Source: a virus
Taxonomy: Duplodnaviria > Caudoviricetes
Virus record (IMG/VR): IMGVR_UViG_3300011438_000025
Coordinates: 1-37,344 of that record
DNA length: 37,344 bases
Reading direction: 5' to 3' (one strand)
Shown: piece after piece, positions 1 through 37,344 of the stretch
Layout of the letters: each line of letters begins with the position of its first letter
How positions within the stretch are numbered: the first letter of the stretch is position 1
Translations under genes and position numbers: made by a program
Notes under the pieces: model-generated
What the model saw: the letters and a program-made list of their open reading frames with translations, nothing else
Database searches by the model: none
Told to the model about the DNA's origin: nothing

Positions 1-499
1 CGCCGACGTTCGAGGCGGTGTTGGTCTCTCCCGAGGTATGGGCGGCGATCGAGTCATCAACGTAGCCCTTCGTGGCGGCGTGGTAAGTGTTGGTGGGCGA
101 GCCGGAGAGCGTGAGGTAACCGCTCATGGTATCGCCGATGCGCAGCACGTAAGCCGGGAAAACGCGGAAGGTGCTGATCAGCTCGGTGAGGGTGTAAATC
201 GTGGAATCGTTCGGGACGCTGATGAGGAACGAGTCGCGCGTCTGGCCGCCGATGGTCACGCGGTAATCGCCGGTGCTCAGGACGATCGAGAATGCGCCGC
301 TGGAATCAGAGGTGGCGGTTTGTTGCGTGGAAGAGACGATGACGGTGGAATCTGTCACCGGGGTCGAGAGCGGGGAGAAGACGACCGTGGTGATGCGGCC
401 GGTGCCGGCGGGGGTGCGGATGGTGCCGGTGATGGTCGAAGCGAAGGCTGAAGGCTGAAGGCTGAAGGCTAAAACAAGACAGAGGAGCAGTAAGCGCAT
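1..499 (-). CDS. Partial virion/structural-type protein with N-terminal signal-peptide-like sequence (runs off left edge)
   Basis: Not in the ORF track; translated by hand from ATG at 499: MRLLLLCLVLAFSLQPSAFASTITGTIRTPAG...YVLRIGDTMSGYLTLSGSPTNTYHAATKGYVD, open to position 1. GDTMSG.L.L and AATKGYVD are tail-fibre-like motifs. TTGACT lies 18 nt upstream. Confidence 0.75.
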   Translation of the reverse strand, partial: MRLLLLCLVLAFSLQPSAFASTITGTIRTPAGTGRITTVVFSPLSTPVTDSTVIVSSTQQTATSDSSGAFSIVLSTGDYRVTIGGQTRDSFLISVPNDSTIYTLTELISTFRVFPAYVLRIGDTMSGYLTLSGSPTNTYHAATKGYVDDSIAAHTSGETNTASNVG

Positions 500-678
500 T
501 TATGCCGGAATGCGCGAAGTCAATCCCCCTTAGCCTTTAGCCTTTAGCCTTTAGCCTTTTTTCTCGAGCTTGGCGCGGAGCGTTTGCATCCATTTGCGCC
601 AGGAGAGTCGGCGCGGAGGGATGAGCGGTTGAAGCGGCCGCCGCGGGATGTCCACGTAAAGCACTGGACCGGACTTCT

Positions 679-2649: not shown

Positions 2650-4461
2650 TCAGCCTTCAGCCTTCTCTTCGAGCATATCCGGCAAAATATCCGTCAGCGT
2701 CGCGCAGAGCACCTGCATCGCTCCGCAGTCGCGGGCGTGGTTGTTCCCCGAGGGACACACCCACACATGCTTGATCACGTGCGTGAATTTGTTCTCTTTG
2801 CGTTTCTTGTACTCGCTGGCCATCTGGCGGCGGTATTCCTTCTCGAGCTCCGTTTCGTCCAGGCCCGCGGGGCCGATCCATTTGCCGTTATCGATGATGG
2901 CTTGGAGGCGGTCGCCCATCGTCGGGCGGGAGAAGCGGATCAAGGGCGCCTGGCGGCGGCCGCTGCCGGCGGCGCCGCTCTCGGGATCGCCATAGACAAG
3001 CTCGGCGTAACTGTGTTGCACTTTCTTGCCGCTCTTGGTGCGGTGAAAGAAGAAGACTTCCTCGCCGCTCTCGCCGGCGACGCCCTTGGCCGCGATCCAG
3101 CCGTAGCGAATGCAGGCGGCGTAAACGCCGTTGTCGCCCTTGGGCTTGAACCCTGAATCGATGCAATGATGATTGCGCTGGACCTTGTGCTTCTCGCGGA
3201 TCTCCTCGAGCTCTGCGAACGAATAGGCTTTGCCAAACGCCAGGCGCCGGACCTCGGGCGCGCGGGACCACGCACAGACGACATACCAAAACACGTCTTC
3301 TTCCTGGCGGTCCGACGTCATGAAACAGCCGGCTTCGTCGGGCCACGTGCAGTCGACCTCATATACGGCGCTGGCGAAGGCGCGGGAGTTTTCCATGAGG
3401 CCGCGTTCGCTCTTGGGCTCGGCCGGATATTTCTGAAAGAATTGGATGAGCGGGGTCGCCACGCCCTTTTTGTAGGCGTTCATCGAGCTGAGGAAATCTT
3501 CGACCAGCAATGCCCAGGAGCGGGTGATGAGCGCCGAATAGTGGAAACTCTTGTGGGCGCGCAGGGCGTCGTGATTCTGCGTGAGATACTTGCCGGTGCG
3601 GTTCCATTCGGAGCGGTTGCGCGTGGTGTCGATGTGGGGGTGGCCGCATTTCTCGCACTCGAAACGGATGGTGGGAATCGCTTTGGGGATGTCCCAGAGG
3701 CCGGAGGGAAGTTTGTGCACGTCCCACACCAGGCCCCAGCGCGTTCCATCGGCGCGGTGATGGGACCAGAGGGTATCCATGTAGTGATCGCATTTCTCGC
3801 ACTTCACGAACCATTCGTCCTGGGAGCCGGCGCGTTGGAGTGTATCCTGGTCGTCGTCCTCTGTGCCGCCTTGGGAGATGTTTAGAACTTTCGAGTTGCG
3901 TAATTCCTCAAAGTCTCCGAGGCGGCCCATCGCTTCCTTGTGGCGGCCGGCTTCCCAGCCCCAGAGCTCATCGTTGACCATGTAGCGGACGCCCTTGCCC
4001 TGGAGATTTGAAACGGCGCTCCCTTGCACGTAGAGCGGCATGCCGTTGCTGAAGATAACTTCGCCGGTTTTCTTGTGGTGGCGATTGGCGGGGAAGAGCG
4101 CGTCGACGGGCGGACAGTTTTCCAGGACGAAGAGCAGGCGCGATTCCCAGTGTTGATCGGCCATCTCGTCTTTCCACCAGTTGAACATCATCGGGCCGGG
4201 GTCGTTGGCGATGATCCAGGGCAGCCAGATGTCGGCCAGCAGTGTCTTCCCCCCGCGGACGGGCGCGCGGACGGTGACGGTCCGCACGTGATCGTCTCCC
4301 AACGCATCGAACGGGCCGATCAGATGGCGCGAGTCTTCGACGCGGAAAAGCCCGGTGCGTGTCAGGACGGGCGGGAGGGTGACGTGTTCAGCGGCCCATT
4401 CGTAAATCGGCCGGCGGTCGGGTGTGGAATAGGCGGAGGCGAAGGAGGCGCGCAGGGACAC
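2650..4461 (-). CDS. Terminase large subunit (lambda GpA family)
   Basis: 603 aa. Walker A APVRGGKT, Walker B YMVNDE, CxxC pairs (CEKC twice), nuclease motifs IDSGF and NHARDC. Confidence 0.92.
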   Translation of the reverse strand: MSLRASFASAYSTPDRRPIYEWAAEHVTLPPVLTRTGLFRVEDSRHLIGPFDALGDDHVRTVTVRAPVRGGKTLLADIWLPWIIANDPGPMMFNWWKDEMADQHWESRLLFVLENCPPVDALFPANRHHKKTGEVIFSNGMPLYVQGSAVSNLQGKGVRYMVNDELWGWEAGRHKEAMGRLGDFEELRNSKVLNISQGGTEDDDQDTLQRAGSQDEWFVKCEKCDHYMDTLWSHHRADGTRWGLVWDVHKLPSGLWDIPKAIPTIRFECEKCGHPHIDTTRNRSEWNRTGKYLTQNHDALRAHKSFHYSALITRSWALLVEDFLSSMNAYKKGVATPLIQFFQKYPAEPKSERGLMENSRAFASAVYEVDCTWPDEAGCFMTSDRQEEDVFWYVVCAWSRAPEVRRLAFGKAYSFAELEEIREKHKVQRNHHCIDSGFKPKGDNGVYAACIRYGWIAAKGVAGESGEEVFFFHRTKSGKKVQHSYAELVYGDPESGAAGSGRRQAPLIRFSRPTMGDRLQAIIDNGKWIGPAGLDETELEKEYRRQMASEYKKRKENKFTHVIKHVWVCPSGNNHARDCGAMQVLCATLTDILPDMLEEKAEG

Positions 4462-4572
4462 GCAGGAGGGGCGGAGTCAAAGGCTAAAGGCTAAATTCTA
4501 AAGGCTGAAGTTCCCGATCAAAGACGTTTTAGCCTTTAGCTTTTAGCCTTCAGCCTTTAACTTCCCTCCCCT

Positions 4573-11404: not shown

Positions 11405-12193
11405 GTGAGCAACAAACTCATGACGGACTACTGGAAAAACGGTCCTTCTTCCCCCACCGATAACATCGTGCTGATCGCCCTGGCAAATTATGCGGACGAG
11501 AAGGGGGTTTGCTGGCCATCGCTCTCCAAGCTGGCCAGCCGAACACGATTTTCGGAGAGAACAGTCCGCTACGCTTTGCGGTCCCTGGAGGAGCAGCGCT
11601 TTATAAGCAGCACTGAGCGCTACGGAAAACACGGTGTTCGGATCTCCAGTCGTTACCAACTGCACCACTCGGAGGAGCTGGATTTATGGGACGAAGGCCA
11701 ACCGGAGAGGCAAAAATTGCCTATGGGGCACGACGCGCCGGGTGAGGGGGCACGGCAGGGGAGGGTGATGGGGCACGACGCGCCGGGAGATGGGGCACGG
11801 CAGGGGAGGGCATTGTACACCCCAGAGTACACTCCATTAGAATCCCCAGTACTTTCTTCAGGTACCCCGTCCGTACGTACGGAGCCCCCGGAAGCCGAAA
11901 CAAAGAAAAGGGGGAATGGGATTCCAGCCACCAGAACCGAAGCAATCGAATGGGCAGCGATGGAGAACGTCCCGGCAGAATTTGCCGGGGAGATATTCGA
12001 CGATCTGGAGGGGGTTAATTGGATCGACTGGCACGACCGGGCAGTCACGAACTGGAGAAGCCATATTCGGTATCGCTGGAGCCGATCCCAGAAAACCAAG
12101 AGCGCTTATGGAAACGGCAAAAAGCATGACGGAAGTCCTGACCGGGATCAATTTACCTACGCTGGCCGGGCACGGCGCAACGGAGGCAATTGA
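11405..12193 (+). CDS. Phage replication initiator (N-terminal winged HTH)
   Basis: VLIALANYADEKGVCWPSLSKLASRTRFSERTVRYALRSLE is an HTH_36-like motif. Has internal repeats and precedes a DnaC-like gene. Confidence 0.85.
   Translation: MSNKLMTDYWKNGPSSPTDNIVLIALANYADEKGVCWPSLSKLASRTRFSERTVRYALRSLEEQRFISSTERYGKHGVRISSRYQLHHSEELDLWDEGQPERQKLPMGHDAPGEGARQGRVMGHDAPGDGARQGRALYTPEYTPLESPVLSSGTPSVRTEPPEAETKKRGNGIPATRTEAIEWAAMENVPAEFAGEIFDDLEGVNWIDWHDRAVTNWRSHIRYRWSRSQKTKSAYGNGKKHDGSPDRDQFTYAGRARRNGGN
11723..11810. repeat. Iteron-like direct repeats (probable replication origin)
   Basis: 45-bp unit ATGGGGCACGACGCGCCGGG..GGGGCACGGCAGGGGAGGG present twice. GGGGCACG at 11725, 11747, 11770, 11792. Confidence 0.75.
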
Positions 12194-12797
12194 GCAAGCG
12201 CAGCCAACCGCGGAGAGGCCACGGCCAGGCTGGAAGGCATTCACCTTCGGCCTGGTCGTGAAGCATCCCGAGGTCAAACACATGGTGGAACAGGCCAAAA
12301 TATTCGTTTGCCGTGCGCTTCGGAATCGGCGCACTGATCCCACGTTGCTCGTGATCACCGGAAATAACGGCAATGGCAAAACGACCGTGGGCAGTGGCTG
12401 TTTTACCTGCTTTGCACAATGGTCCATTGATGCCTATTGCAATGGTTGGTGGCGCACTGATGCCCCAAAGGCGGTCTGCCTAGAGTGGTCGGAATTGGCA
12501 GGGACCAAGCCCGAGGAACGAGATGGGGCGTGGCGAGATTGCATCGAAGCGGACTTCCTGGTGCTGAATGATGTGGGCTCCGAGCCCAATGAGATGAAGA
12601 GCGGAGTTGCCGGAGAGAATCTGAGGTTGATGCTTGAAGCGAGGCTAGGTCGATTCACGATTATCACCATGAATTTTCACCCAGAAGACTGGGTCGGTAA
12701 ATGGGATGCGCGGGTAGAAGATCGCTTGTATAGACGGGCGCAATTGATCGAGCTGCCGACAGCCCCGAGCTGGTGGCGCGCGAAGGGCAAATCATGA
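12108..12797 (+). CDS. DnaC/IstB-like ATPase (helicase loader)
   Basis: Walker A GNNGNGKT, Walker B FLVLNDVG, TIITMN, RVEDRL. Start re-assigned to ATG 12108 (12126 also possible). Confidence 0.85.
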   Translation: METAKSMTEVLTGINLPTLAGHGATEAIEQAQPTAERPRPGWKAFTFGLVVKHPEVKHMVEQAKIFVCRALRNRRTDPTLLVITGNNGNGKTTVGSGCFTCFAQWSIDAYCNGWWRTDAPKAVCLEWSELAGTKPEERDGAWRDCIEADFLVLNDVGSEPNEMKSGVAGENLRLMLEARLGRFTIITMNFHPEDWVGKWDARVEDRLYRRAQLIELPTAPSWWRAKGKS

Positions 12798-13399
12798 GCA
12801 CTGGTATGGCGACCCGGCCCCGGCGACTTGTTAGGCCCATCGCTGTGCTGTGCTGCAAATCGACGAGTCACTATAAGCGCATGGACGGTGTTGAGTGCTA
12901 CGATGCTTCGCGCGACGTGAGCACGTTCGACGGTGGGATGCCAATCGTGGCCCATCCCCCTTGCCGCTCCTGGTCGGCCTTCTGCGCCCATCAGGCAAAG
13001 CCGGTGCCAGGCGAAAAGGAACTCGGGCCGCTGTGCGTGGAATGGTTGCGAAAATGTGGCGGCGTTCTCGAACATCCAGCCCACTCGAGGCTATGGGATG
13101 CCTGCAAGCTCCCGCTTCCTGGCCGGAGCGATGGGGATCTGTGGACGATTGCCGTCTGGCAGTCCTGGTGGGGCTATCCGCTGACAATCAAAAGGACCTG
13201 GCTCTGCTTTCATGGAATCTCCAAGCGCGACATTCACACGCCGCTCACCCTACGCGGGCAAGGTGGCGACAAACGATTGTGGAGCGTCGGTTCGACATCC
13301 TGGCGAGATCGTTCGACTGACGAATTTTGCGCGTGGCTCGTGGAAGCTGCGCGACGGTGTTGGCCGAACGACCGGACTGGCAAATCTAATGAGCACTGA
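12794..13399 (+). CDS. Putative C5 DNA cytosine methyltransferase-like protein
   Basis: IVAHPPCRSWS (PC motif), GGVLEHP, KRTWL. ATGA overlap with the dnaC-like gene. Confidence 0.6.
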   Translation: MSTGMATRPRRLVRPIAVLCCKSTSHYKRMDGVECYDASRDVSTFDGGMPIVAHPPCRSWSAFCAHQAKPVPGEKELGPLCVEWLRKCGGVLEHPAHSRLWDACKLPLPGRSDGDLWTIAVWQSWWGYPLTIKRTWLCFHGISKRDIHTPLTLRGQGGDKRLWSVGSTSWRDRSTDEFCAWLVEAARRCWPNDRTGKSNEH

Positions 13400-13934
13400 G
13401 AATCAACCGGACCGAAAGACAATCGTGGCGGCATTAGTAGAAGTGGCCCGCGCTGCGCACGCTCTCGCGGATAACACGGCAGATGACCATACAATTCCAG
13501 CAATCCCAGAAGGCGCGCTCCTATGCGACTCAGGCGACATGGACAAACTCTCACAAATGTTGGACGTGCTCGGCCAGTGGCCGGATCCACCCGGCGAATG
13601 GGCGACCGGACCAAGAAAGGCCGAACACTGGTATAGCGAGAACGCTGAACAATCTGAGACGCAATCGCCGGGCTCACTGGAGCGCGTCGTTAGCGAAGAA
13701 CGAATATTGCAACTGTCCAACGATCTCAACGAAGGGATCGAAAGCGGCAGCATCAAGGAATGGCGCGCGGTCGCGCTCTACTTTCGCACCGAACTGGATA
13801 AGCTTACTCCTCCCAGGTCGTCTCTCGCCGCGCTGACAATCGCAGAGAAAATGCGGTCTCAAGCAATGCTCGAAATCGCAGCCTGGGTAAAAGCTCAGAG
13901 CGACTCCGAACTCAAAGGCTTCTATGAATCCTGA
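13389..13934 (+). CDS. Hypothetical protein, probably two cassette ORFs fused through a decayed attC
   Basis: Starts MSTENQPDRK. The internal peptide SENAEQSETQSPGSLERVVS is encoded by attC-like arms at 13638-13695. Confidence 0.6.
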   Translation: MSTENQPDRKTIVAALVEVARAAHALADNTADDHTIPAIPEGALLCDSGDMDKLSQMLDVLGQWPDPPGEWATGPRKAEHWYSENAEQSETQSPGSLERVVSEERILQLSNDLNEGIESGSIKEWRAVALYFRTELDKLTPPRSSLAALTIAEKMRSQAMLEIAAWVKAQSDSELKGFYES

Positions 13935-14217
13935 AAACAAAATTGGCCGTCCTCCGCTTCCAAGCGGCGAGTCGGCAGCGGGGCAGGCTGTTGGCTCAAG
14001 CGACTTGTTAGCCTGCCCCTTTTGCGGCGCCATACCCAAAATCTGCGAGATGAGATACATCAACACCGGGCGGCTCTATGGATACAGGCTCAAATGCGGC
14101 ACGTGCGGACTTGGGGTGAAGGAGCAACCCGTGTGCTGGCCGGCTGGGAAAGAAAACGAGGAAATGCTCGAAGCCAAAGTTGCGTTGGTGAAGCGGTGGA
14201 ACACGCGAGCAGGCTAA
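13924..14217 (+). CDS. Lar-like zinc-ribbon protein (restriction-alleviation family)
   Basis: LLACPFCG...CGTCG...KRWNTRA pattern. N-terminus AVGSSDLLA is encoded by an attC arm; stop TAA lies inside GGCTAAC. Confidence 0.75.
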   Translation: MNPENKIGRPPLPSGESAAGQAVGSSDLLACPFCGAIPKICEMRYINTGRLYGYRLKCGTCGLGVKEQPVCWPAGKENEEMLEAKVALVKRWNTRAG

Positions 14218-14350
14218 CGCTCCGGATCAGCGACCGGGCGAGCAAAACCGGAAACTTTTATGAATACAGAAATCATTGAACAAGCAGTCACCGTCACCGT
14301 TGCGACCACCGAGGCTAAGCCCGGTTCGCTGCATCCTTTTCTTGTTCGGG
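14212..14350 (-). other. attC-like site
   Basis: Minus strand reads CCCGAAC-AAGAAAA-GGAT(G)CAGCGA(A)CCGGGC...GCCCGG-TCGCTG-ATCC-GGAGC-GTTAGCC: two extrahelical bases and an unpaired spacer. Confidence 0.8.
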
Positions 14351-14532
14351 CGAATACGAATACTTCAAAATGTATCTCGTGTGCTCGCGACTTTGAATTT
14401 GTGCCGTTGCGGATCGGCGACCTACTGTATGTGGACTCCTCGGGCCGAGAGGTGCGATGCAAAAAGGAAATAGCTCCAACCATCTGTCCCAAGTGTCTGC
14501 GGACCTGTAAATGCAAAGATGGCAGACCATGA
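14260..14532 (+). CDS. Cys-rich hypothetical cassette protein
   Basis: 90 aa, motifs CISC and CPKC. ATG lies in the loop of the 14212-14350 site. Confidence 0.65.
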   Translation: MNTEIIEQAVTVTVATTEAKPGSLHPFLVRANTNTSKCISCARDFEFVPLRIGDLLYVDSSGREVRCKKEIAPTICPKCLRTCKCKDGRP

Positions 14533-14540
14533 AAACCTGA

Positions 14541-14659
14541 GCCCGAACAAGAAAAGGAATGCAGACAACCTGGAGCGAAGCGGAGTGCCCGCGTTTGAAT
14601 CCAATCCACACCTCCCGCCGCTTCACTCCAGGTTATCTACATTCCTTTTCTTGTTAGAC
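14541..14659. repeat. Long attC-like hairpin with 38-bp arms and no bulges
   Basis: AACAAGAAAAGGAATGCAGACAACCTGGAGCGAAGCGG pairs with CCGCTTCACTCCAGGTTATCTACATTCCTTTTCTTGTT, with three mismatches. Confidence 0.8.
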
Positions 14660-14812
14660 GGCAAATGAGCATCGATCACTCAACGCTGCCGAGCATTAGC
14701 AACGGTATCCAGGCCATGAACCTCTACGACCCTCAAGAGCGGCACTCATTGGCTGCACCGCTTGGTTGGAGCGCCCGGCTCTGGCAGAGGTCAAAATAAA
14801 TGAAAACAGTTC

Positions 14813-14840
14813 TTGCAATAGCCAGCGTTGGGTATAGAGT
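14813..14840 (+). promoter_or_regulatory. Sigma70-like promoter inside a cassette (probably leaderless transcript)
   Basis: TTGCAA-N16-TAGAGT with an A-rich upstream tract, ending 6 nt before ATG 14847. Confidence 0.5.
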
Positions 14841-14846
14841 GAAGGC

Positions 14847-15110
14847 ATGAAAACAAACCTGACAAATGCACAGATAAACAAGGCGATGGAATCCGGTGCG
14901 CGTGGCGCGTCTGAATACTTCGATGCCTGCGGCAAGTGGATCAAAGCCAACTGGGAAAACCTCGTGGAACTCCACAAGGCTTTCGAGTCCGAGACGAACA
15001 GCGAAATGGATCGCAGCGTGTTCTGCTCTAAAATGTTCAATGAGACGAAAGAAGGCCGCGCCGCTGCTGAAAAGTATCTGCGCCCGATTCTCAACCTCTC
15101 ACGCAACTAA
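14847..15110 (+). CDS. Hypothetical protein
   Basis: 87 aa ORF directly after the internal promoter. Confidence 0.7.
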   Translation: MKTNLTNAQINKAMESGARGASEYFDACGKWIKANWENLVELHKAFESETNSEMDRSVFCSKMFNETKEGRAAAEKYLRPILNLSRN

Positions 15111-15111
15111 A

Positions 15112-15360
15112 ATGAACTGCCCACACTGCGGAAAACCAATCAACGCGGGCGCGCTGCTCGGAAGCGTCTCGACGCCCGCCAAGACTCGCGCCGCTCGCGC
15201 AAATGCAAAACTCGGTGGCTGGCCGAAAGGAAAGCCACGCAAACCCAAGCGCGCACTCCGGCGCTCCAACGACCCAAGCTCAGCGACCCGGCCCGCTGAT
15301 GAAGAAAATAATCAGCCTGTATCAACGGAACTACGACGGCGATCGCCTAGTAAGAAATGA
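15112..15360 (+). CDS. Small basic protein, putative DNA-binding/antitoxin-like
   Basis: MNCPHCGKPINAGALLGSVSTPAKTRAARANAKLGGWPKGKPRK. Starts 1 nt after the previous stop and reads through the next attC arm (SNDPSSAT). Confidence 0.65.
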   Translation: MNCPHCGKPINAGALLGSVSTPAKTRAARANAKLGGWPKGKPRKPKRALRRSNDPSSATRPADEENNQPVSTELRRRSPSKK

Positions 15361-15877
15361 AATCGTGCCGGGCGCCGAGTGGGTGGCTGCCGGTGAAGGC
15401 GTGGCAACTCGTAAGTACGACGGCACGTGCTGCATGGTGCGCGACGGCAGTCTGTACAAACGTTACGACGCCAAGCAAGGCAAGGCACCTCCGCCAGGAT
15501 TCGAGCCAGCGCAAGACGCCGACTCGACAACTGGACACTGGCCCGGCTGGATGCCGGTCGGTGACGACAGCGGCGACCAGTGGCATCGTGAAGCGTTGAA
15601 CGTGGCCGGCGGACACCTGCACGACGGGACATACGAACTCATCGGGCCGAAAGTGCAAGGCAACCCCGAAGGCCGTCCGACTCACACACTCATCGCGCAT
15701 GGATGCGATGTGCTGGACGCCCCACGGACTTTCGATGGACTGAAAGCGTGGCTGGCGGCTCACAATATCGAAGGCATCGTATGGCATCACCCCGATGGCC
15801 GCATGGTGAAGATCAAGGCGCGCGACTTTGGCATAAAGCGAGTGGGCTCCCCCGCGTTGGCTTCAGCGCATGGTTGA
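15299..15877 (+). CDS. ATP-dependent RNA ligase-like nucleotidyltransferase (DUF5565-like)
   Basis: MKKIISLYQRNY start; motif I TRKYDGT, YELIGPKVQGNP, EGIVWH, MVKIK. Confidence 0.75.
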   Translation: MKKIISLYQRNYDGDRLVRNEIVPGAEWVAAGEGVATRKYDGTCCMVRDGSLYKRYDAKQGKAPPPGFEPAQDADSTTGHWPGWMPVGDDSGDQWHREALNVAGGHLHDGTYELIGPKVQGNPEGRPTHTLIAHGCDVLDAPRTFDGLKAWLAAHNIEGIVWHHPDGRMVKIKARDFGIKRVGSPALASAHG

Positions 15878-15929
15878 ACGACGCGGCGCGCCATGCTTGG
15901 CCTAACGACAGAGATCAGCGACCCGGCCC

Positions 15930-16094
15930 ATGAAAACTGACGAAACGCTCACTCGTGATGAAATCAACTTCCTGCTTTGGTGTGTTGGATTTGCGGAAGG
16001 TCGAGCGCGGACTGAGGAACCGCGTGACAAGTACGTCCGGTCTCATTGTGATGCTGCCCGGAACAAACTGATGTCCATGACTGCCGACGACTAA
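15930..16094 (+). CDS. Small hypothetical protein (54 aa)
   Basis: Below the ORF-track cutoff: MKTDETLTRDEINFLLWCVGFAEGR...MTADD*. ATG follows an attC-like arm directly. Confidence 0.6.
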   Translation: MKTDETLTRDEINFLLWCVGFAEGRARTEEPRDKYVRSHCDAARNKLMSMTADD

Positions 16095-16098
16095 AGCA

Positions 16099-16205
16099 GC
16101 CGAACGACAGAGCTGAGCCACGCGGAACCACACCATGAAAGAAACTGATATCGAAGCGGCAAAGCAAGAGCGCTCGTCCGCGTTGGCTCAAGCGCCTTGT
16201 TCGGC
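16099..16205 (-). other. attC-like site
   Basis: Plus strand reads GCCGAAC-GACAGA-GCT-GAGCCA-CGCGGA...TCCGCG(T)TGGCTC(A)AGC-GCCTT-GTTCGGC. Confidence 0.8.
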
Positions 16206-16428
16206 TGCCTCTACGCTCTCCGGACTTCCTGATGATGCGCTCGAAATTGTGTTGGCTGAATACCGATATTGGAGCCAAGCAACTTCGGTGGAGGTATCAA
16301 TAGGGGCCACGGCAGCGGCGGCTAACATCTATTGCGCCCTTGCGGGCATCCATCGAGCGCCGTGGCATCCCAAATTGGCGGGGGCTGAGCAGTCGAACGA
16401 CCCAAGCTCAGCGACAGCCAGCCAATGA
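16135..16428 (+). CDS. Hypothetical cassette protein
   Basis: 97 aa. ATG in the attC loop; both ALAQAPCSA and the C-terminal SNDPSSAT are encoded by attC arms. Confidence 0.65.
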   Translation: MKETDIEAAKQERSSALAQAPCSAASTLSGLPDDALEIVLAEYRYWSQATSVEVSIGATAAAANIYCALAGIHRAPWHPKLAGAEQSNDPSSATASQ

Positions 16429-16485
16429 AGCCACGACCTGAAACCAAAGCGGACACTGGCTGTTCGCTGGAGCGCATGGTTAGGC
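16392..16485 (-). other. attC-like site
   Basis: Plus strand reads GTCGAAC-GACCCAA-GCT-CAGCGA-CAGCCAG...CTGGCTG(T)TCGCTG(G)AGC-GCATG-GTTAGGC. Confidence 0.85.
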
Positions 16486-16697
16486 CACGGATAATCACGC
16501 TCTCCGAGAACGTCCTGCAAGACGAGCCTCTGTCATTCATGGTGTTCGCTTACCAATCAATGGAGGTAGACTACATGGTCTTCCCGGAAGAACTTGACGC
16601 CCGCGACTACGCGATGGAGCAAGAGGAAAAAGCAAACGCTCCAGAAGACTCATGGCCGATTTACGCGCTGTGGGCATCGGAGTGGCCTAACAGGTAA
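16425..16697 (+). CDS. Acidic hypothetical cassette protein
   Basis: 90 aa. ATG in the attC loop; GCSLERMVRP comes from the arm; ATGA overlap with the previous gene. Confidence 0.65.
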   Translation: MKPRPETKADTGCSLERMVRPRIITLSENVLQDEPLSFMVFAYQSMEVDYMVFPEELDARDYAMEQEEKANAPEDSWPIYALWASEWPNR

Positions 16698-16939
16698 TAT
16701 ACGGCCTATTGGATGCCTTTAATTACGGCAGATTTTCGCAAGCTGTTCGCGCTCAAATTGCCGGTGGAATATTGGAAAAGGAAAGGCTGAGAACACCGCG
16801 TGCAAAGTCCGCTGGAGAATCTGCCGATGACAGAGGGTGCTACAGCCCCACGACCCAGCCGAGATCCTCGACGATGATTGCCATCGGCAACATAAAAAAA
16901 GTTCACCCCACGTCGCGGCTACACGGCAAAGCGAAGGAA

Positions 16940-17013
16940 AAGGCTGAAGGCTGAAGGCTTAAGGCTAAAGTCTGATCAGACTTCAGCCTTTAGAATTTAG
17001 CCTTCAGCCTTTT
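16940..17013. repeat. Inverted heptamer arrays around palindrome AAGTCTGATCAGACTT; probable bidirectional terminator
   Basis: (GGCTGAA/GGCTAAA)n - GTCTGATCAGAC - (TTCAGCC/TTTAGCC)n at the point where early and late transcription converge. Confidence 0.8.
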
Positions 17014-17015
17014 CT

Positions 17016-17303
17016 TCAGACGCACTCGACCTGGAGGTAAACGCTGGACTTCGCGCAGGCGGCGGCCGCCTCGGGGAAATTGGTCTTGAGCAAGGTCGAA
17101 TCGATCCCCGTCCGCATTTTCTCTTTCACGAGGGCTAGAAGGGTCGCGTTGTGTTTGATCGAGCCTTCCTGGTTGTCCACGTATTCGAGGATGTTGACCT
17201 TAAGTTCGGCTTCGCGTTCTTCGGTCTCTTTTTTGAGGGCCCGCACTCTGACCAGTTCGGCGATTTTTTCGCGGATGTCGGGGGTGGCCTGTTTTTGGAG
17301 CAT
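17016..17303 (-). CDS. Hypothetical coiled-coil protein (resembles C-terminal part of YqaJ-like phage proteins)
   Basis: 95 aa from ATG 17303: LKKETEEREAELKVNILEY...RTGIDSTLLKTNFPE. Confidence 0.6.
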   Translation of the reverse strand: MLQKQATPDIREKIAELVRVRALKKETEEREAELKVNILEYVDNQEGSIKHNATLLALVKEKMRTGIDSTLLKTNFPEAAAACAKSSVYLQVECV

Positions 17304-17400: not shown

Positions 17401-18594
17401 TTAGAAATGCGTTACTACCGCGCGGAACGTTCCAGAGGCAGGGTTGATGCTCCCTGACGAATAATTGTTGAAGCGGACGGTGACGGTGTTGGCGCTGCTC
17501 ACGTAGGCGGTGAAGCAACTGTTCGCATTCACGCTGCCGCTCGGAACGCCGATTTGCACCGGATCACCATCGGCGGCGCCGGTCACCGTAATTGTCAGGT
17601 CCGTCGAGAGGAGCGTGGTCGTGCTGCCGAAGTCCAGGGTCGCGGTCGCACTCATGACTTTCGCGATCGCGGTTCCGCCTCCGATTTTCAAGGTGCCCAG
17701 CTCCGCGTTGGCGTCGGCGCTGTTGTCGGCCAGGCGGAACTTGAGCGACGTGCCGCTGCGGATGAGGGCCGGGAACGTCGCGGCCGTCCCACCGAACATC
17801 AAGCGCGAGAAATCTGTTTGCGCATCGTTGGACAGGACGATGACGCCGTCGCTGTCAAATTTGATGCTGCCACGGCCGGTCACGTAGTAGAGACCGCCGG
17901 CGGCAACCGTGAAATCGGTGGCGATGACGGCTCCGGCGTTAAAGGTGGAGGTTCCGGTGATCGGCGAGTTGACGATGGGTGTGGAGATGATCTTTGCGAA
18001 TTGGTTGGTTCCGGTCCAGACCTTGCCGCCCGCGATGGCGGTTTGCTCGGTGGCGTTGTTCACGAAATTGGAATTCACAACGGCGGCGGGCGCGATGCTG
18101 TTGGTCGAGTAAAGCGAAAGCGCGGTGGTGAGGAGCGAGGCCTGGTTGGTCCGATCGCTGGCGGGCAGGGGCATGCTGGACATCGGCACGCGGATCGCTT
18201 GCAGGACGGGCACGGTCCCCGTCGAGAGCGAGATGGTGCACCAGGTGGTCCCGGTCAGGCTCGCGGCCATGCTGCCGCCCAGGAGCGTGGTGAGCGTGAT
18301 GCCGTTGGTTCCGGAGCGCTCGAGCAACAAGTTGTTTGCGAATGGATAGGCGGCGAGATGGTTGAAGAGGTTCGTCGCGACGGCGCCGATTGAGTTAGTC
18401 ACACCAATCTGTGTGGAGACGGTCGAGACGGGCTGGGTTTTCCAGGTGCGGGTGACGCCGTTGACGACCAGGGTGTCGTTGTTGGCGGTGGCGGCGACGA
18501 TGGTGATCGTCGCGGTGATGCGGTCGAGAGCGGACGCCGGAAAGGCTAAAGGCTGAAGGCTAAAGGCTAAAAGAATCAGACGGAGCGAGCGCAT
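17401..18594 (-). CDS. Tail fibre-like protein with N-terminal signal-peptide-like sequence
   Basis: 397 aa, Thr/Ser/Gly rich. C-terminal SATATLDFGS...AYVSSANTVTVRFNN..INPASGTFR is typical of fibre/spike C-termini. N-terminus MRSLRLILLAFSLQPLAFPASA. Confidence 0.7.
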   Translation of the reverse strand: MRSLRLILLAFSLQPLAFPASALDRITATITIVAATANNDTLVVNGVTRTWKTQPVSTVSTQIGVTNSIGAVATNLFNHLAAYPFANNLLLERSGTNGITLTTLLGGSMAASLTGTTWCTISLSTGTVPVLQAIRVPMSSMPLPASDRTNQASLLTTALSLYSTNSIAPAAVVNSNFVNNATEQTAIAGGKVWTGTNQFAKIISTPIVNSPITGTSTFNAGAVIATDFTVAAGGLYYVTGRGSIKFDSDGVIVLSNDAQTDFSRLMFGGTAATFPALIRSGTSLKFRLADNSADANAELGTLKIGGGTAIAKVMSATATLDFGSTTTLLSTDLTITVTGAADGDPVQIGVPSGSVNANSCFTAYVSSANTVTVRFNNYSSGSINPASGTFRAVVTHF

Positions 18595-18640
18595 GGTGTT
18601 TTTTTGGTTTTAGCCTTTAGCCTTTAGAATTCAGCCTTTC

Positions 18641-19222
18641 CTACGTAATGGGCGTGACGAGCAATTCGCCGCTGACGATCGCGACGTAATGGAGGGAGCC
18701 GTCCGTTTGATCGATGAAGATCATTTGGGTCGTTCCGGCTTTGGCGGCGTAGAGAGCGGCGGCTTCGTTCTTGCCCAGCGCTTCATCGGCCGGCGTGGCG
18801 GGAACGGTTGTGGGTGTCGCCAGGCGATTGCCGAGCGTGACGGTGAAAAGGCATTTCCAATAGGCGCTGCCGCTCAGGATCTCGAACTCGAGGTCTTTGG
18901 TGACGGGCGGAGTCAGCGCCAGGATCGCGGCGACGTTCAACGCCAGGTCGCCTTCGTGCACGTCACCGTTGGCGACCAGGCTGACGGAGTTGAGCTCGGA
19001 GCTGCCGGCGACGCCGATGGTGGCTTTTACCGAGGTTCCGGAGCCGGGGATGGTCGACAGGGCGACGGAGCCGCCGGCCGGGTTTGGCTTGGTGAGGGTG
19101 ATGGCGAAAGAGATGGTCTCGCCGATGATGAACCCTGGAAGAGTAAAAGGAGAATCGACAATCGAGCTTTTCGAGAGCCGTTTGGTGGCAGTGTTGATGG
19201 CGAATTCAAGAGGGACACCCAT
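18641..19222 (-). CDS. Putative baseplate/tail structural protein
   Basis: 193 aa, beta-rich, within the tail module. Confidence 0.55.
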   Translation of the reverse strand: MGVPLEFAINTATKRLSKSSIVDSPFTLPGFIIGETISFAITLTKPNPAGGSVALSTIPGSGTSVKATIGVAGSSELNSVSLVANGDVHEGDLALNVAAILALTPPVTKDLEFEILSGSAYWKCLFTVTLGNRLATPTTVPATPADEALGKNEAAALYAAKAGTTQMIFIDQTDGSLHYVAIVSGELLVTPIT

Positions 19223-19303
19223 TGAGGGAGGGGGGCGAAGTCAATGCTGAAGGCTGAAGGCTGAAGGCTAAAGGCTGATCAGACTTTAGCCTTTAGCCTT
19301 TTC

Positions 19304-20308
19304 TTAAAGAACTACGTTCATGGCGTAGCAGGCGTAGACGACCAGCGAGCCGGCGCCACCGTGGACGGTGCAGCCAATCTGCGGGTTCGTCTCGACGATG
19401 GTGTCTTTCAAACGCACGTAAATTCCCCAGAGCGTTTTGTTCGGGCCGGGGATCGGGACGTGCGGATAGCCGGGGTCCGTGGGCGAACTTGCTTCGAGGC
19501 CGGCGACGGTAGGGTCGCCGTTGTGGTAGAGGGTGAAGTTCGGGAAGCTGGGGCCGTTGAAGAATCCGGGGAACGCTGGCGCGGTCAGGCCCGGTGGATA
19601 CGGTATCGAGGGCTGTTGATAATAGGCGTTGCCGGGCTGCACATCGCGGTTGGTGATCCATTCGGCGCGATCGTCTGAGAAAGGATTCATGTAGGCAGGG
19701 CCTAGATCGTAAATCGTAAAGCTCTCAACCAGCGAACGGCCGTTGCCGGTCATGAACACCATGTCCTCTGTGAGCGGGTTGCCGTACTCGGTGACCGCTT
19801 GAAAAAAGACGCTGAAATAATCGAAGGTCGTGAAGTCTGCCAAGAGCACCGGCAAAGCGGGGGCGACGCGCATGGGCGCCTGGTTGGCCATAAAAATATC
19901 GTCCTGGTAGGCGGCACCCGCATGGCCGATGAATTGGAGATTATAGACGTTGGTCCAGAAGCGGCCGGCGGCGTCGGGATAATCGGCGCCCTCGATGAGG
20001 CCATCGAAGCTGCCGCCGCCGGACACAAAGTCATCGATCCAGCGTTGGCGGTTATCGATGCGCAGGTAGGGCAGGGCCTGGGTCATGACGGAGAAGTCGC
20101 CCGGGATGTCGGGCAGGAAGACGGCGGGGCCGGTGATGAGGGTTACTTCCCAGGAGATGTAAACGGAGCCGTAGAAATCGAGGTCGGTATAATAGCGGCG
20201 GAGGGGGTAGCCATCGGTGCCGATGAGGAGAGTTTTTTTGCAGCGGCGGACGTGGGCGCGGCTCTCCTTAAGAGCGTGCGCTCGGCTAGAGACTGGAACA
20301 GTGTTCAT
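19304..20308 (-). CDS. Hypothetical tail-module protein
   Basis: 334 aa, aromatic/Pro rich, bounded by heptamer hairpins at 19246-19301 and 20315-20392. Confidence 0.6.
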   Translation of the reverse strand: MNTVPVSSRAHALKESRAHVRRCKKTLLIGTDGYPLRRYYTDLDFYGSVYISWEVTLITGPAVFLPDIPGDFSVMTQALPYLRIDNRQRWIDDFVSGGGSFDGLIEGADYPDAAGRFWTNVYNLQFIGHAGAAYQDDIFMANQAPMRVAPALPVLLADFTTFDYFSVFFQAVTEYGNPLTEDMVFMTGNGRSLVESFTIYDLGPAYMNPFSDDRAEWITNRDVQPGNAYYQQPSIPYPPGLTAPAFPGFFNGPSFPNFTLYHNGDPTVAGLEASSPTDPGYPHVPIPGPNKTLWGIYVRLKDTIVETNPQIGCTVHGGAGSLVVYACYAMNVVL

Positions 20309-20393
20309 GGGGCAAAGGCTAAAGGCTGAAGGCTAAATGCTAAAACGTCTTGATCGGGAACTTCAGCCTTTAGCCTTTAGCCTTTAGCCTTTC

Positions 20394-21044
20394 TCAAAAG
20401 TCAGCGTCCTCGGTCATGCGCTCGAAGGTTTGTGCCCAGGCGTGGCTGTTCACGTTCATATCCTGCCAGGCGATCGATCCGGGGGGTTCGTCGGGTTCAT
20501 CCGGATCGACGATGTGAGCGCCGTTCTTGATGCCTTTCACGGCGAAGACCAGCTCGTCGGTGCGGTAGGGCTCGACGATGGTTTGGATCTCGTGATAGCT
20601 GCCCACGGTGACATGCCGGCGGGAGAAAAGCTCATCGTCGTCCGTGAAATATTCGTAGAGCTGGCCGTTGAGCGTGAGGCCATCGAATGGAGCGCGGCGC
20701 AGGGTCCAGGGCTTGGCGACGCGGACCAGCTCGCTGACGGTGTAGTGCGTGGCATCGGCGACGCTGGCTTGAGTGCGGGGCGTGACTTCAGTATCCAGCC
20801 ACGGGATGCAAAAGAGGTAATCGGCTTTTTCGAGTTTGAGGGCGAAGGCTTTGACTTCGATGTCGGATTCGCCGCCTTCGATCACAGCGCGGGGCGTGAC
20901 GGTCCAGCCGAGGGCGGTGTGATTGGTGAGGCCGTGAATGGAGGGCGTCGGCGTGTGCGAGAGGACGATCTCAGCGAGTTCGTTGATCCGGCGGTAGAGG
21001 GCGGCGAAGCGGCCAGTCTCCGTCAATGGTTGCCAAGTGTTCAA
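20394..21044 (-). CDS. Putative tail tip protein
   Basis: Start re-assigned to TTG 21044, which gives a TTGA overlap with the upstream stop. Second gene after the tape measure. Confidence 0.55.
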   Translation of the reverse strand: MNTWQPLTETGRFAALYRRINELAEIVLSHTPTPSIHGLTNHTALGWTVTPRAVIEGGESDIEVKAFALKLEKADYLFCIPWLDTEVTPRTQASVADATHYTVSELVRVAKPWTLRRAPFDGLTLNGQLYEYFTDDDELFSRRHVTVGSYHEIQTIVEPYRTDELVFAVKGIKNGAHIVDPDEPDEPPGSIAWQDMNVNSHAWAQTFERMTEDADF

Positions 21045-25968: not shown

Positions 25969-26062
25969 GGAGACGAGGGGAAGTCAATGCTGAAGGCTTG
26001 AAGAAAAGGCTAAAGGCTGAAGGCTGAAGGCTAAAGTCTGATCAGACTTTAGCCTTTAGACT

Positions 26063-26560
26063 TTAGAATTTAGCCTTTTTCAATCCCACCCAACAGGCCA
26101 TCGCCACGGGCTGGATCATCTCGGGCGCGATGGGCGTTGGATCGTGGATGATCGTGGTGACATCGTCCCCGAATTTGTCCTTGAGGATGACGTCTGGAAT
26201 CTGGGTGAACACATCGTCGGCGGTGATGAGCACCAGGCCGTCGGGGCCCTCGAAGCGCTGAAGCTTCGTCGCATTAAGGGCGTTGACCAGGTCCTGGCGC
26301 TCGATGAGAGGCTCGTCCAACAGGAAATCGAGCACGTCGGCGGCGCTCTGGAAATCTTCCGAGCAAGGCGGGCATTCGGCGACGCGCTTTGTGGAGGTGG
26401 CGAACATGGCGCGCTCGCAGAGAAGCGAGATCGCCTCAAACTCGGGGGGCAGCGGCTCGGGCGGCCTGGTCGGAGGGACGGGCACGGTGCGGCAGCCTAT
26501 CACATAGGCGACCAGGAGCAGCACCAGGAAGAGAGACCAGGGGGAAAAGGCTGAAGGCAT
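26063..26560 (-). CDS. Putative lipoprotein (possible spanin-like lysis accessory)
   Basis: Hydrophobic stretch ending VIG-C (lipobox-like), then a Pro-rich linker; next to the holin-like gene. Confidence 0.55.
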   Translation of the reverse strand: MPSAFSPWSLFLVLLLVAYVIGCRTVPVPPTRPPEPLPPEFEAISLLCERAMFATSTKRVAECPPCSEDFQSAADVLDFLLDEPLIERQDLVNALNATKLQRFEGPDGLVLITADDVFTQIPDVILKDKFGDDVTTIIHDPTPIAPEMIQPVAMACWVGLKKAKF

Positions 26561-26654
26561 GGGGAAAAGGCTGAAGGCTGAAGGCTGAAGGCTAAAGGCT
26601 GAAAGTCATGAGTGTTTTTTTTAGCATTTAGCCTTTAGCCTTTAGCCTTTGTTT

Positions 26655-26969
26655 TCATTCCTCATGCACCTGATTGCCTCGCGCGGTGATGCCGCCGGTT
26701 TTGGTGTGGTTGGTGCGGCCGAAGTAAAACCCGATCACGAGAAAGAAGGCGTTGGCCATCATCGATTCTTTGGCGGTGCCGTTGGTCAGCGTCACAAATA
26801 ACACGGCGATGTTGGCGCCGACTACACTGAGAGCGATCGACGCTTGCGTGGTTTCCCACATAAGATTTATCCGGCGCTGGCTCTGGTTGTGAAGGCCAAT
26901 TCGTTTGTCGCGCTGGGTCGCCGTAGGTGCGGGCGGCGCAGGCGGTCCAATTGGTTCCACGTCGCTCAT
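26655..26969 (-). CDS. Putative holin-like two-TM protein
   Basis: 104 aa with two hydrophobic helices, the second ending FLVIGFYFG. Confidence 0.55.
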   Translation of the reverse strand: MSDVEPIGPPAPPAPTATQRDKRIGLHNQSQRRINLMWETTQASIALSVVGANIAVLFVTLTNGTAKESMMANAFFLVIGFYFGRTNHTKTGGITARGNQVHEE

Positions 26970-27042
26970 TGGAAGGAGGCAGAGTCAATGCTGAAGGCTA
27001 AAGTCTGATCAGACTTTAGCCTTTAGAATTTAGCCTTTAGCC

Positions 27043-30000
27043 TTAGAACGGAGGCCCCGTCAGCCAGCGATTCGGCGTTTTCGATTTGATGTAGTTGGCG
27101 ACATTTTCAAGTTGGTCGTAATTGCCCGGCAAACCATCGGTGCCGTTTGACCAGGTGGTGTACATAATCCCAATCCAACCTTGCATGCCTTGTGCCTCGG
27201 CCAGCGCTGCGAGGGTGAACCAGTTGTCGATGTTCGCGGCGTAGTTCGAGCCGGCGTCGTAATAGACAGCAAAGATTTGGCGGTTGCGCTGTTTGGGAAA
27301 GCTCGGGTCCAGGCCGTCCCAGAATTTCATGTTGGCGGTCGAGTTGTTATTGAACCAATTAAACACGATCGCGTTTCCGGAGAGGCCCAGCCAACTGCCG
27401 GTCAGATCCCCCTTGTCCATGAAATACAGGGTCGTTGCGTTGTGGTAGGGATCGAACATGTCGTTCCAGAAATAGCGTTCGATGTTGGGATTGACTGCGT
27501 TGATGACGCCCTCGACTCCGTGCACGAAGTTGCTTAAATACTGGCCCATCGTGAGATTGCCGCAGGAGGGGTCCCAGTTTCCTACTCTAAGTTCATTGGC
27601 CCTGACTGCCCAGGCCGTGGGCGCCATGCGTGAGTTAACGAGGCTCGCGTTGGTCGCCAGGACATCGAAGAACTCGGGATTGCAGATCGTGCCTGGAACG
27701 GTGAAGAGCTCTGCTGTGTTGCCCAGTTCATACCAGGAAACTTTGAGGCTGGCTCCCGCTGAAATGGTCGATCCCCCGGGAATGGTCAGAGATTCTGTCC
27801 CTACGACATAATCCGAGCCCTCGGTGTAAGTGGGGCTGCCGGCGTAAGCTTTGACGACGATGGGCGTGCTCGACCTGCGAATGGTCTGGTAAAGCCCGGT
27901 TTCGGTGAAGGTCACATCATCCATCCAAATCAGTCCGGTCGCGTTGGCGGCGGACATGACATAGAGCTTGATCGAGGATTGCTCCAGGCTGTTGATGTCG
28001 ATCACGTATTGAGTCCAGTCCTGCGTGGAGCCAATGATCGTGGAGGTCCCGAGGCCGCCGTCGCGATTGCTCCAGAGAATTCTGCCGTTGCCGCTGTTGC
28101 CCAGGACATAAAACTTGATCGAGCCAGGAGACGTGTAAGCTGAAGTTTTGACCCACACTCCAACCTTGTAGCAACGGAAGGGTGTGACAGCGATGTCTTG
28201 ATAGACCCGTCCCTTATTGGGGTTGATCCCGGTGTTCTGCAATCGGACTGAAGCGGCTCCACCGTGTTTGATGGAGGTATCGATAATCGTGACTGTGCCC
28301 GGATCATCGACCGTCCAGCCCGTCGGCTGATTGCCGGAGAAGGTTTCAAACCCGCCGTTGACCAAAACCGGAACAGGGTCGCCCACGGGCGAAGCGGTTC
28401 CACCGCTGCGGACGAACTTCGTGTCGATGACCGGGAAGGCCTCGCGCAACTCGACGGGCGCGGTCGAAACGGCCTCGCTCATGCTCAACGAATACGGCGC
28501 TATAATCATCCCCAGCGAGTTGGCTAGATTCTTGATGGCGGTGAGGTTTGCCAGACCAGTCGCATTGGGACTCAGCGAAATCATGTTGGGATCTTTGAGA
28601 ACAATTCCGTTAAAGCCGACGGCAGCGCCTCGACGCACGACATTGGTCAATCGGCTGTAGAGCGCGGTCGTGTTCAGACAATTGTTGTCCGTCTGGTAAA
28701 AGATGAAGCGGCGGCTCAAGTCGTTTGTCGTCAGCGCGGGCGATGACGGCGGATAGAGGCTCGTCCAGTTTTTGGCGGGCCAGATGGTCTTGCACCAATC
28801 GAGGATTTGATTCTGCAACGTGTTGTCGATCTTGAGGCCGGTGTTGGCTCCGAGATTGTTCCAGTAATAGGAGCCTCCGCTGTGCGGCGTGAACGAGGAG
28901 ACGATGCTGTCGCCGAATTTCACGCCGTCGCGGTTGTCGACCGGGACATAAGCAGCGGTGGTGAGTGCGGCGGTGGTGGCGTTGGTGAAGGTGTAATATT
29001 TTGAGGCAGTCCAGCGTTTGTTTTCATAGAGCCAATTGCGCAGGAATGCTTCGATGACCAATTTGCGTGTGGCGGTCGGTGTGCCGGCCCAGAAGGCCTC
29101 GAAGTCGGAGAAGACGAGCGAGTCCGGGTTGGCGGTGGTCCAGGGGTTCCAGCCGCCGGAGGTCCAGCGGTCCGGGCCGTAGGTGGGGGCGTTGGCCTGA
29201 ATCTCTTTGACCTTCCAAAACGTGAACAACCCTCCAAGTGGGAAGTTGGGGGTGAGATTCTGCAGGTCCTTCAGAATACCTTCCACGTAGGGCCAGTCGA
29301 TAGGAGTTTGGTGCGTTTGGTAGAAGATATCCGGCGAATGGTTGCCGTAATCGATCAAGAGCTGCACCTGATACCAGGCCTGGGAGAAATATTTAAACGT
29401 GGCGGTAGAGTTGTTGTTGATGCCGTGGTTCGTGAGGGACAGGCCGAGGATGTTGGGCGAGGCGTCGAAGTAGAGGCGCTTGGTGTATTGGGTGCGCGGT
29501 TCGGCGGCTGCCTGAAACAAACCGGCGGTGACGGCGAGGTTCTGCAAATCAAACTCGTTGTGCAGTTCCCACATCTTGGTGAGCTGCCAGAGGGCAGTGG
29601 CGTAGGCTTTGCGCGCGGCGGCGATCGTGCCATGTGAGGATTTGGGCGAGATGGAAACTTGATAGGGCATGCCGGAGTCGGTCCCCTCGAGGACCCAGCC
29701 GGCCAGGATGAACTTGGAGTTTGCGAGCGACGCGGCACTGCCTTTCACGAGCGTGTTGCGGAGGTACTGCGTTCCGACGGCCGCGCCGTTGCCCCCGCCG
29801 TCGTACTGCGTCATGAGCTTGCTGCCCGACGCAATGAAAGCGTTGCTGCCGAACGCATCGAGCGGATGAATGCTCGGCAGCCAATGATTCCAATCGGGGA
29901 GCTGCATCGCGATCCGGACTTGCCGGACATTGGCGTTGTTGGTCAGAGTGATGACCGTATTCGTAACGACACTTCCAAAGAGATCGCTGATGGTCAGTTG

Positions 30001-33816: not shown

Positions 33817-33860
33817 GGTTTATTTTGTTTTAGCCTTTAGCCTTTAGCCTTCAGCCTTTT

Positions 33861-37067: not shown

Positions 37068-37113
37068 CGTTGCTCACGCGCGGGGAGTCAATTCTGACTT
37101 TAGCCTTTAGCCT

Positions 37114-37344
37114 TTAGCCTTTAGCCTTTTCTTCGTTGATGGCGTCGAGGATAGCAGCTCGCTCGAAGGTGCTCATTTTCTGAATGAAACTCACCCAGCG
37201 TAGTTTTTTGCGTTTGATGCGCTCGCGCTCGCGGAAGTTGCGGCCCAGGTAGCGGTAGTCGTGAAGCTCCAGCGGCGGCGGGAAGTTCATCCAAACCCAT
37301 TCCTCGGCGATGTTGCCGCCCCGCGTGATCGTCGTAAATCTCGC
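37114..37344 (-). CDS. C-terminus of a Dam-like DNA adenine methyltransferase (partial)
   Basis: Hand translation: ...TRGGNIAEEWVWMNFPPPLELHDYRYLGRNFRERERIKRKKLRW...EEKAKG*, resembling phage D12-class methylase C-termini. Catalytic motifs lie outside the window. Confidence 0.55.
   Translation of the reverse strand, partial: ARFTTITRGGNIAEEWVWMNFPPPLELHDYRYLGRNFRERERIKRKKLRWVSFIQKMSTFERAAILDAINEEKAKG

Follow-up and report, generated by a model that had tools for sequence, protein, structure and literature searches.

The window analysed here is the whole of one viral record, IMGVR_UViG_3300011438_000025 of IMG/VR (Caudoviricetes), a linear viral contig of 37,344 nucleotides that is about 81% complete. 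A portal protein, a terminase, a phage integrase, a repressor, an O-like replication initiator and a DnaC-like loader are encoded in the record, and therefore the virus is a temperate phage. Directly downstream of the initiator and loader genes (11420..12797, plus strand), amid small plus-strand open reading frames (ORFs), lies the region of this study at 12.8–16.7 kb, in which sites resembling the attC sites of integron gene cassettes were found among the genes. The integrase gene of the phage (7877..9061, minus strand) encodes an ordinary phage integrase, not an integron integrase.

Sites and genes of the array

The attC sites were searched with a detector that uses structure only, i.e., AAC, a spacer, an 8-nt L'' box with one extra base, a paired stem, L' and GTT, following the attC anatomy in the available text of Nivina et al. 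(2016, PMC5027507). In the 37 kb, the detector found three sites, designated E, K and L, all inside the array and all on the minus strand, and five shuffles of the sequence gave 0, 0, 1, 0 and 0 sites. All three fold into the R''/L''/L'/R' hairpin, the R''-L'' arm of which has extra-helical bases. The plus strand carries the genes, and the start codons at 14260, 16135 and 16425 lie within the loops of E, K and L. Three full sites within 2.3 kb constitute a cluster of attC sites without intI (CALIN), which is defined by at least two close attC sites and no intI.

From left to right, the array begins with site A (12809..12837, minus strand, as are all sites below), a collapsed attC remnant in which a short piece of the L' arm is joined to the R'' core at 12830. 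The gene of this unit (12794..13399, plus strand; phrog_12600, function not assigned) is followed by core B (13362..13369), which ends the unit and has a decayed arm behind it. Site C (13637..13695) is a degenerate attC with a partnerless core, and is read through in frame by the ORF 13389-13934. Half-site D (13987..14016) consists of the R''-L'' arm only, and its core matches that at 14209 at 10/10. The Lar-like restriction alleviation gene (13924..14217, plus strand) has its stop codon in the core of site E. Site E (14212..14350) is a full hairpin with two extra bases and an unusual 7-nt spacer at 14337-14343, and a spacer of this type was present on the R'' side in 8 of 430 detected sites. 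The cassette gene that starts inside site E (14260..14532, plus strand) has two CxxC motifs and no family match. Behind it lies hairpin F (14546..14655), which is described later. Half-site G (14744..14775) again retains the R''-L'' arm only, and its core matches that at 15260 at 11/11 across the ORFs 14847-15110, which gave two weak partial matches only, and 15112-15360. Half-site H (15260..15294), an L'-R' arm only, is immediately before the start codon of an RNA-ligase-like gene (15299..15877, plus strand; phrog_14301, PF17720), the boundaries of which are lost here. In the INPHARED phages this was the sole gene with matches (20 records). Half-sites I (15856..15880; R''-L'' arm only, partnerless core) and J (15900..15929; L'-R' arm only, immediately before the ORF 15930-16094) follow, and then the intact sites K (16099..16205) and L (16392..16485), with the cassette genes K (16135..16428) and L (16425..16697), both on the plus strand and without assigned function. 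A pattern scan found no relative of gene K. The array ends at M (16682..16720), an attI-like putative docking site, for which the minus-strand crossover G|TT would be at 16691/16690.

A normal attC is kept in only two of the six units (starting at 16105 and 16398), one unit has a transposon-scarred site, and in three the site is lost or collapsed. The intact sites are mainly at the right end of the array. Sites A, H and J share a 12-nt repeat. Scans for promoters and terminators gave counts at the chance level. Site K (window 16096-16208) pairs with itself at 10/10, and the arms J (15900-15929) and K have a common spacer; it is possible that a tandem copy of cassette K existed in the past.

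Complementarity of the cores across the genes

An initial annotation of this DNA had listed six pairs of GTT and AAC cores that match across a gene: 12830/13362 (7/8), 14007/14209 (10/10), 14344/14541 (8/8), 14765/15260 (11/11), 16199/16389 (9/10) and 16479/16682 (10/10). All 12 motifs were found at these positions with these counts. The cores at 14212 and 16392 match across the gene better than within their own hairpins, as had been described, but the core at 16199 fits its own hairpin core at 16096 at 10/10 and the core across the gene at 9/10. Each pair had been ended near its first mismatch in that annotation, and the pairs were rescored over a constant length, namely the 7 nt that adjoin the shared GTT/AAC. 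The six scores were 5, 7, 5, 7, 6 and 7 (37/42), and the true pairing was the single best of the 720 permutations (mean 23.3, next best 35). An unselected set was also scored, which contained all nine GTT cores next to an attC arm, each paired with the next arm-defined AAC, misses included. The total was 46/63, reached by 180 of 362,880 permutations (p=0.0005). Six of the nine cores were complementary at 5/7 or more with the next end, which is the complementarity expected of attC in the circular form. Outside the array, 0.7% of 584 plus-strand GTT had a partner of at least 6/7 at 150–600 nt downstream, and none had 7/7. The pairs and their lengths had been picked by the initial annotation, and three further cores are partnerless, so that chance matches chosen after the fact should be considered. 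However, the p value counts the misses, the background is low, and the boundaries are supported independently by the related loci described below (L007, L324 and L325). Chance is refuted by the permutation and background tests, and we regard it as practically negligible.

The complementarity was compared in loci with the same attC arm motif, comprising 107 bacterial and 48 viral cassettes. Cores matched at 6/7 or more across the gene in 76 of the 107 bacterial and 37 of the 48 viral cassettes, as compared with 18 and 4, respectively, within the linear hairpin. The available text of Joss et al. (2009; ACID, PMC2674596) defines the attC of a cassette as its sequence in the circular form, and the cores pair across the gene because both belong to one site in that form. 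Paired cores are known and ordinary cassette biology, generic in this attC family, as the initial annotation had held. The complementarity had also been taken as independent support for the unit boundaries and the inverted orientation. The former is borne out; orientation cannot be obtained from the core match, because joining at G|TT or at AA|C closes the stem in both cases. As a footprint of circular intermediates, the pairing shows a past cassette origin, but not present circles, for which no junction was found in the Logan contigs of two runs, one of them possibly the run from which this DNA came. The joints 15292/15294 to 16462, listed as candidate circle junctions, had other letters between them and derive from other attC sites of the family. 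Circularization in silico at AA|C improved the folds of E (from -22.1 to -28.4 kcal/mol) and L (from -15.6 to -22.7 kcal/mol), but not that of K. Overall, the analysis supports the reading of these features as integron-type cassette boundaries with the crossover AA|C on the plus strand and inverted genes.

Orientation, movement and the array end

The orientation of the cassette genes in the comparison set was counted by a symmetric ORF test, which gave clear calls in 79 of the 107 bacterial and 22 of the 48 viral cassettes. The bacterial calls were 73 sense and 6 antisense, and the viral calls were 3 sense and 19 antisense. Thirteen of the 19 viral antisense genes start in their own attC loop. 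As exceptions to this split, the bacterial locus L126 is apparently reversed and is possibly a prophage, and the viral loci L090 and L251 resemble normal bacterial arrays. In 96 of 201 bacterial attC sites (L092-L224), the antisense strand of the loop also contains an ATG, and the frame of the loop ATG reaches at least 120 nt into the cassette at 27 bacterial sites as compared with 43 of 91 viral sites. The loop start codon may be older than its use by phages.

A homologue of gene 12794-13399 (67% identity) is present in two provirus records, L324 and L325, in a 649-nt block that is 99.85% identical between them. The identity begins with the TAAC in the upstream site and stops 2 nt past the AAC after the gene, and the neighbours of the block differ on both sides. 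Therefore, the upstream site travels with the gene and is cut at AA|C, and the block lends indirect support to recombination of the bottom attC strand by IntI. The cores of the block pair at 7/7 and align with 12830 and 13362, the weakest pair of the initial annotation, and an intact attC occupies the place of the collapsed site A. Similarly, the ligase-like gene is 83% identical to a gene in L007, which forms an intact cassette there with cores matching at 12/12. Arm I (window 15856-15880), behind the ligase gene, almost equals the arm before the ligase gene in L007 (2946-2975), a pattern seen in one fetched locus only. The evidence for the orientation is thus the canonical attC sites on the minus strand (3 of 3 intact sites) and the moved block of L324/L325, not the complementarity of the cores. 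Among 76 viral and 175 bacterial cassette bodies, there were no matches between viral and bacterial arrays. It would appear that ordinary phage genes were turned into cassettes in some lineages.

The array end at 16691 lies in non-attC sequence. With a profile made from seven bacterial attI sites next to intI genes, end M ranked second among the 1,049 GTT sites of the window, although this profile is weak (leave-one-out scores from -1.4 to 6.0). The ends of other viral inverted arrays were in the top 5% by the same profile in 8 of 10 cases, with two outside, and the viral locus L249 has a nearly matching array end with another first cassette. The integrase of the phage itself scored 23 bits at best against the integron integrase model. 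Of ten other viral records that have such sites, three encode an IntI above the TIGR02249 cut-off, and the IntI of L240 reached 254 bits against the cut-off of 265. In L236, L240 and L325, no more than about 100 nt separate the array end from the start of intI, which is codirectional with the cassette genes, and therefore the classical intI-attI-attC geometry is kept in these records while the genes are reversed. These intI genes directly behind the array end, in the direction of the reversed cassette genes, are located at L325:2481-3521, L240:312-1379 and L236:2-313. A separate clade of phage IntI was considered; a tree of ten rows does not separate phage and host IntI, and L240 groups with the bacterial L110. 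In bacterial genomes, the same attC family adjoins true IntI genes. The bacterial loci that match the attC family are mostly (uncounted) from Verrucomicrobiota or Planctomycetota, and therefore the host of the phage is likely to be among these phyla. The array of the window has no intI beside it and its genes are not on the attC top strand; it would work as an integron array does and is a CALIN by definition, but is not a complete integron.

Compared with integron cassettes in the available text of PMC5027507 and PMC2674596, the array has the same R'', L'', L' and R' boxes, extra bases on the R''-L'' arm, spacers of 5–7 nt and 86–131 nt from AAC to GTT. It differs in that the genes lie opposite to the attC top strand and start in their own attC loop. 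The opposite orientation arises in the available text of Nivina et al. (PMC5027507) only via top-strand recombination, which would flip the site and the gene together, whereas here the polarity of the sites is normal and the gene alone is reversed. The phage CALINs of Qi et al. (2023, PMC9892861) are also attC clusters without intI inside phages, and IntI1 was shown in that paper to recombine five of six phage attC sites. The arrays of TJE1 and PH101 are called typical in orientation there, and reversed genes or loop start codons do not appear in its main text, as far as available; the array described here has an attI-like end in addition. Chromosomal integrons of Verrucomicrobiota and Planctomycetota (L106, L145, L131 and L170) share the attC arm sequence and a similar attI, but their genes are normally oriented (73 of 79 clear calls) and they have no bodies in common with the viral arrays. 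Reversed cassettes with loop start codons in phages, and IS91 elements targeting attC, were not found in the searched literature, which covered few subscription papers and was available in part (including PMC8876359, PMC3053210, PMC7923331 and PMC13492144).

Outside the array, a 7-nt unit occurs as tandem and inverted-pair repeats between many late genes, with 12 copies in each of two families (window 424-565, 2200-2671, 4460-4564, 16920-17018, 18522-18645, 19223-19316, 20295-20398, 25986-26656, 26970-27046, 33714-33879 and 36992-37135). This repeat is also present in the viral locus L091, and looks like a REP-type element. At 27043-33816, the window encodes a protein of 2,257 amino acids with internal repeats of about 280 nt and without a PHROGs match, and at 33861-37067 a protein of 1,068 amino acids with matches to depolymerase and polysaccharide deacetylase.

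Hairpin F and the history of the array

Hairpin F (14546-14655) is not an attC site. Its arms are fully paired and the extra bases are absent, and the detector did not find it; an attC in the direct orientation was rejected for the same lack of extra-helical bases and for its homology to the ends of insertion sequences. F is what remains, in a double-ended form, of the hairpin at the end of an IS91-family transposon. The F arm was found in 65 other metagenome loci (own record excluded), and in 30 of 50 motif hits with at least 700 nt behind the motif, a transposase gene points at the hairpin. In viral contigs, a 19-nt pattern for F matched four times by chance, in unrelated sequence. The transposases belong to the IS91 family (Y2 HUH; PF04986 and PF14319), and F matches the end downstream of such a transposase, inserted next to GTT. 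Most of the motif copies are preceded by attC-like cores (GCCT 17, GCCG 11, GGCT 7, GTCT 5). F and a mini-insert within an attC in L323 share 92% identity over 102 nt, and the ends of full elements are 77–86% identical to F. The double-ended form of F, in which both ends have the same 7-nt terminus, is also present in L274 and L322. The ends of such elements go by the names oriIS and terIS. No transposase lies at F, and tblastn with the L261 transposase gave no match in the window, with L275 as the control (E=0). The metagenome loci L258-L323, without L285, contain a widespread element of the IS91 family whose insertion point is the GTT opposite attC R'' cores. A GTTGAAC box comes after the end hairpin of this element, so that the element end resembles a new attC.

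Very probably, the early region of this temperate phage contains, at 12.8–16.7 kb, an array of integron-type cassettes that has partly decayed and in which the genes are opposite to the attC strand, and the paired cores are likely scars of the insertion of circular cassettes by an integron integrase. An IntI, encoded by the host or by a phage gene since lost, would have recombined the folded plus strand at AA|C. New cassettes would have docked at the 16691 end, in which case the youngest ones (K and L) would have stayed intact and the older ones would have lost arms by deletion. That the genes face attI may be due to their transcription from the early promoter of the phage, which would lie upstream of the replication genes, instead of from an integron Pc. 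Sites E and F may both have been reached by an attC-targeting IS91-family transposon, of which the end hairpin stayed behind.

Several observations weigh against this reading. Three of the nine cores, at 13689 (3/7), 14653 (4/7) and 15873 (2/7), have no partner, the fold of unit K joined at AA|C is less stable than that of the linear site (-26.0 versus -29.5 kcal/mol), and the attI profile is weak. A TIGR02249 search for intI gave no match in this linear record of about 81% completeness, and no IntI remnant was found behind site M. No orientation call was clear in 26 of the 48 viral cassettes. The initial annotation had named homologous genes lacking these boundaries as evidence against its claim, and this is partly the case, since most homologues lack them: a detected attC is at the 3' end of the gene in only 3 of 80 ligase loci, and the homologues of gene K (L089) and gene L (L005 and L006) have no such boundaries. 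An identical copy of any window cassette was not found elsewhere. Neither a circle junction nor a cassette-less form was found in the Logan contigs of the two runs, where rare forms are dropped and absence cannot be shown.

The unit 14344-14652 may have another history, in which an IS91-family transposase moved it from a GTTC end to the origin hairpin without IntI, and the pair 14344/14541 is no footprint of an integron circle. In addition to the identities of F given above, this pair continues 10 nt past the crossover (18 nt in all), unlike 155 pairs of other arrays with a longest extension of 1 nt, the unit is flanked by a 13-nt direct repeat, and one-ended transposition of IS91 is described in the available part of PMC7923331. 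However, the start codon of the gene is within site E as in an ordinary inverted cassette, the 8-nt cores pair like those of other units, and the window contains no transposase, although the control was found. We consider this history unlikely, yet worth keeping in view for this unit. Site E has a 7-nt spacer with the sequence of the IS91-type end, and therefore the ends at E and F explain the 18-nt match and reduce the value of this pair as a witness. The 13-nt direct repeat, with copies at 14334 and 14643, also suits an exchange of units in which homologous or micro-homologous recombination of the repeated arms, catalysed by a phage recombinase, is the main process and the cores reflect shared repeat ancestry only; the half-sites and the fused start codons (H and J) likewise resemble deletions between short repeats. 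Since the core matches are specific across each gene, not random between repeats, and the moved block of L324/L325 has both its limits at AAC and not within the arms, this is improbable as the way in which units were exchanged. Arm recombination may be the cause of the decay of the array.

A real but dead array, i.e., a relic taken over once, with no cassette exchange now and the paired cores as fossils, differs from the integron-type insertion preferred here only on the present activity. The absence of intI from the record, the ratio of three full sites to at least seven half or collapsed ones, the ORFs that read through old sites and the absence of variant forms from the Logan contigs are consistent with a relic. 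On the other hand, K, L and the attI-like end are intact, the cores of K and L pair at 9/10 and 10/10, and IntI, which could act in trans, is encoded in bacterial genomes that have attC sites of this family. We hold a dead array to be a serious possibility, somewhat short of an even chance.

The paired cores are an already known feature, and the reversed layout of the array is a new variation on integron arrays. The reversed layout, the loop start codons and a docking site on the phage side would together amount to site-specific swapping of small early genes, such as the Lar-like anti-restriction gene. Other phages contain homologues of the cassette genes that are not cassettes, and the sampled bacterial cassettes include no homologue. 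This distribution bears on how cassettes arise. It is tentatively proposed, at nearly even odds, that phages of Verrucomicrobiota run an integron of their own: ordinary phage genes would become cassettes with the start codon in their own attC, would be docked backwards at a phage attI for the early transcript, and would be shuffled by a phage IntI at the transcript end, which is kept in some relatives and lost here, with a gene pool separate from the integrons of the host. If this is true, phages are a place where new cassettes are created.

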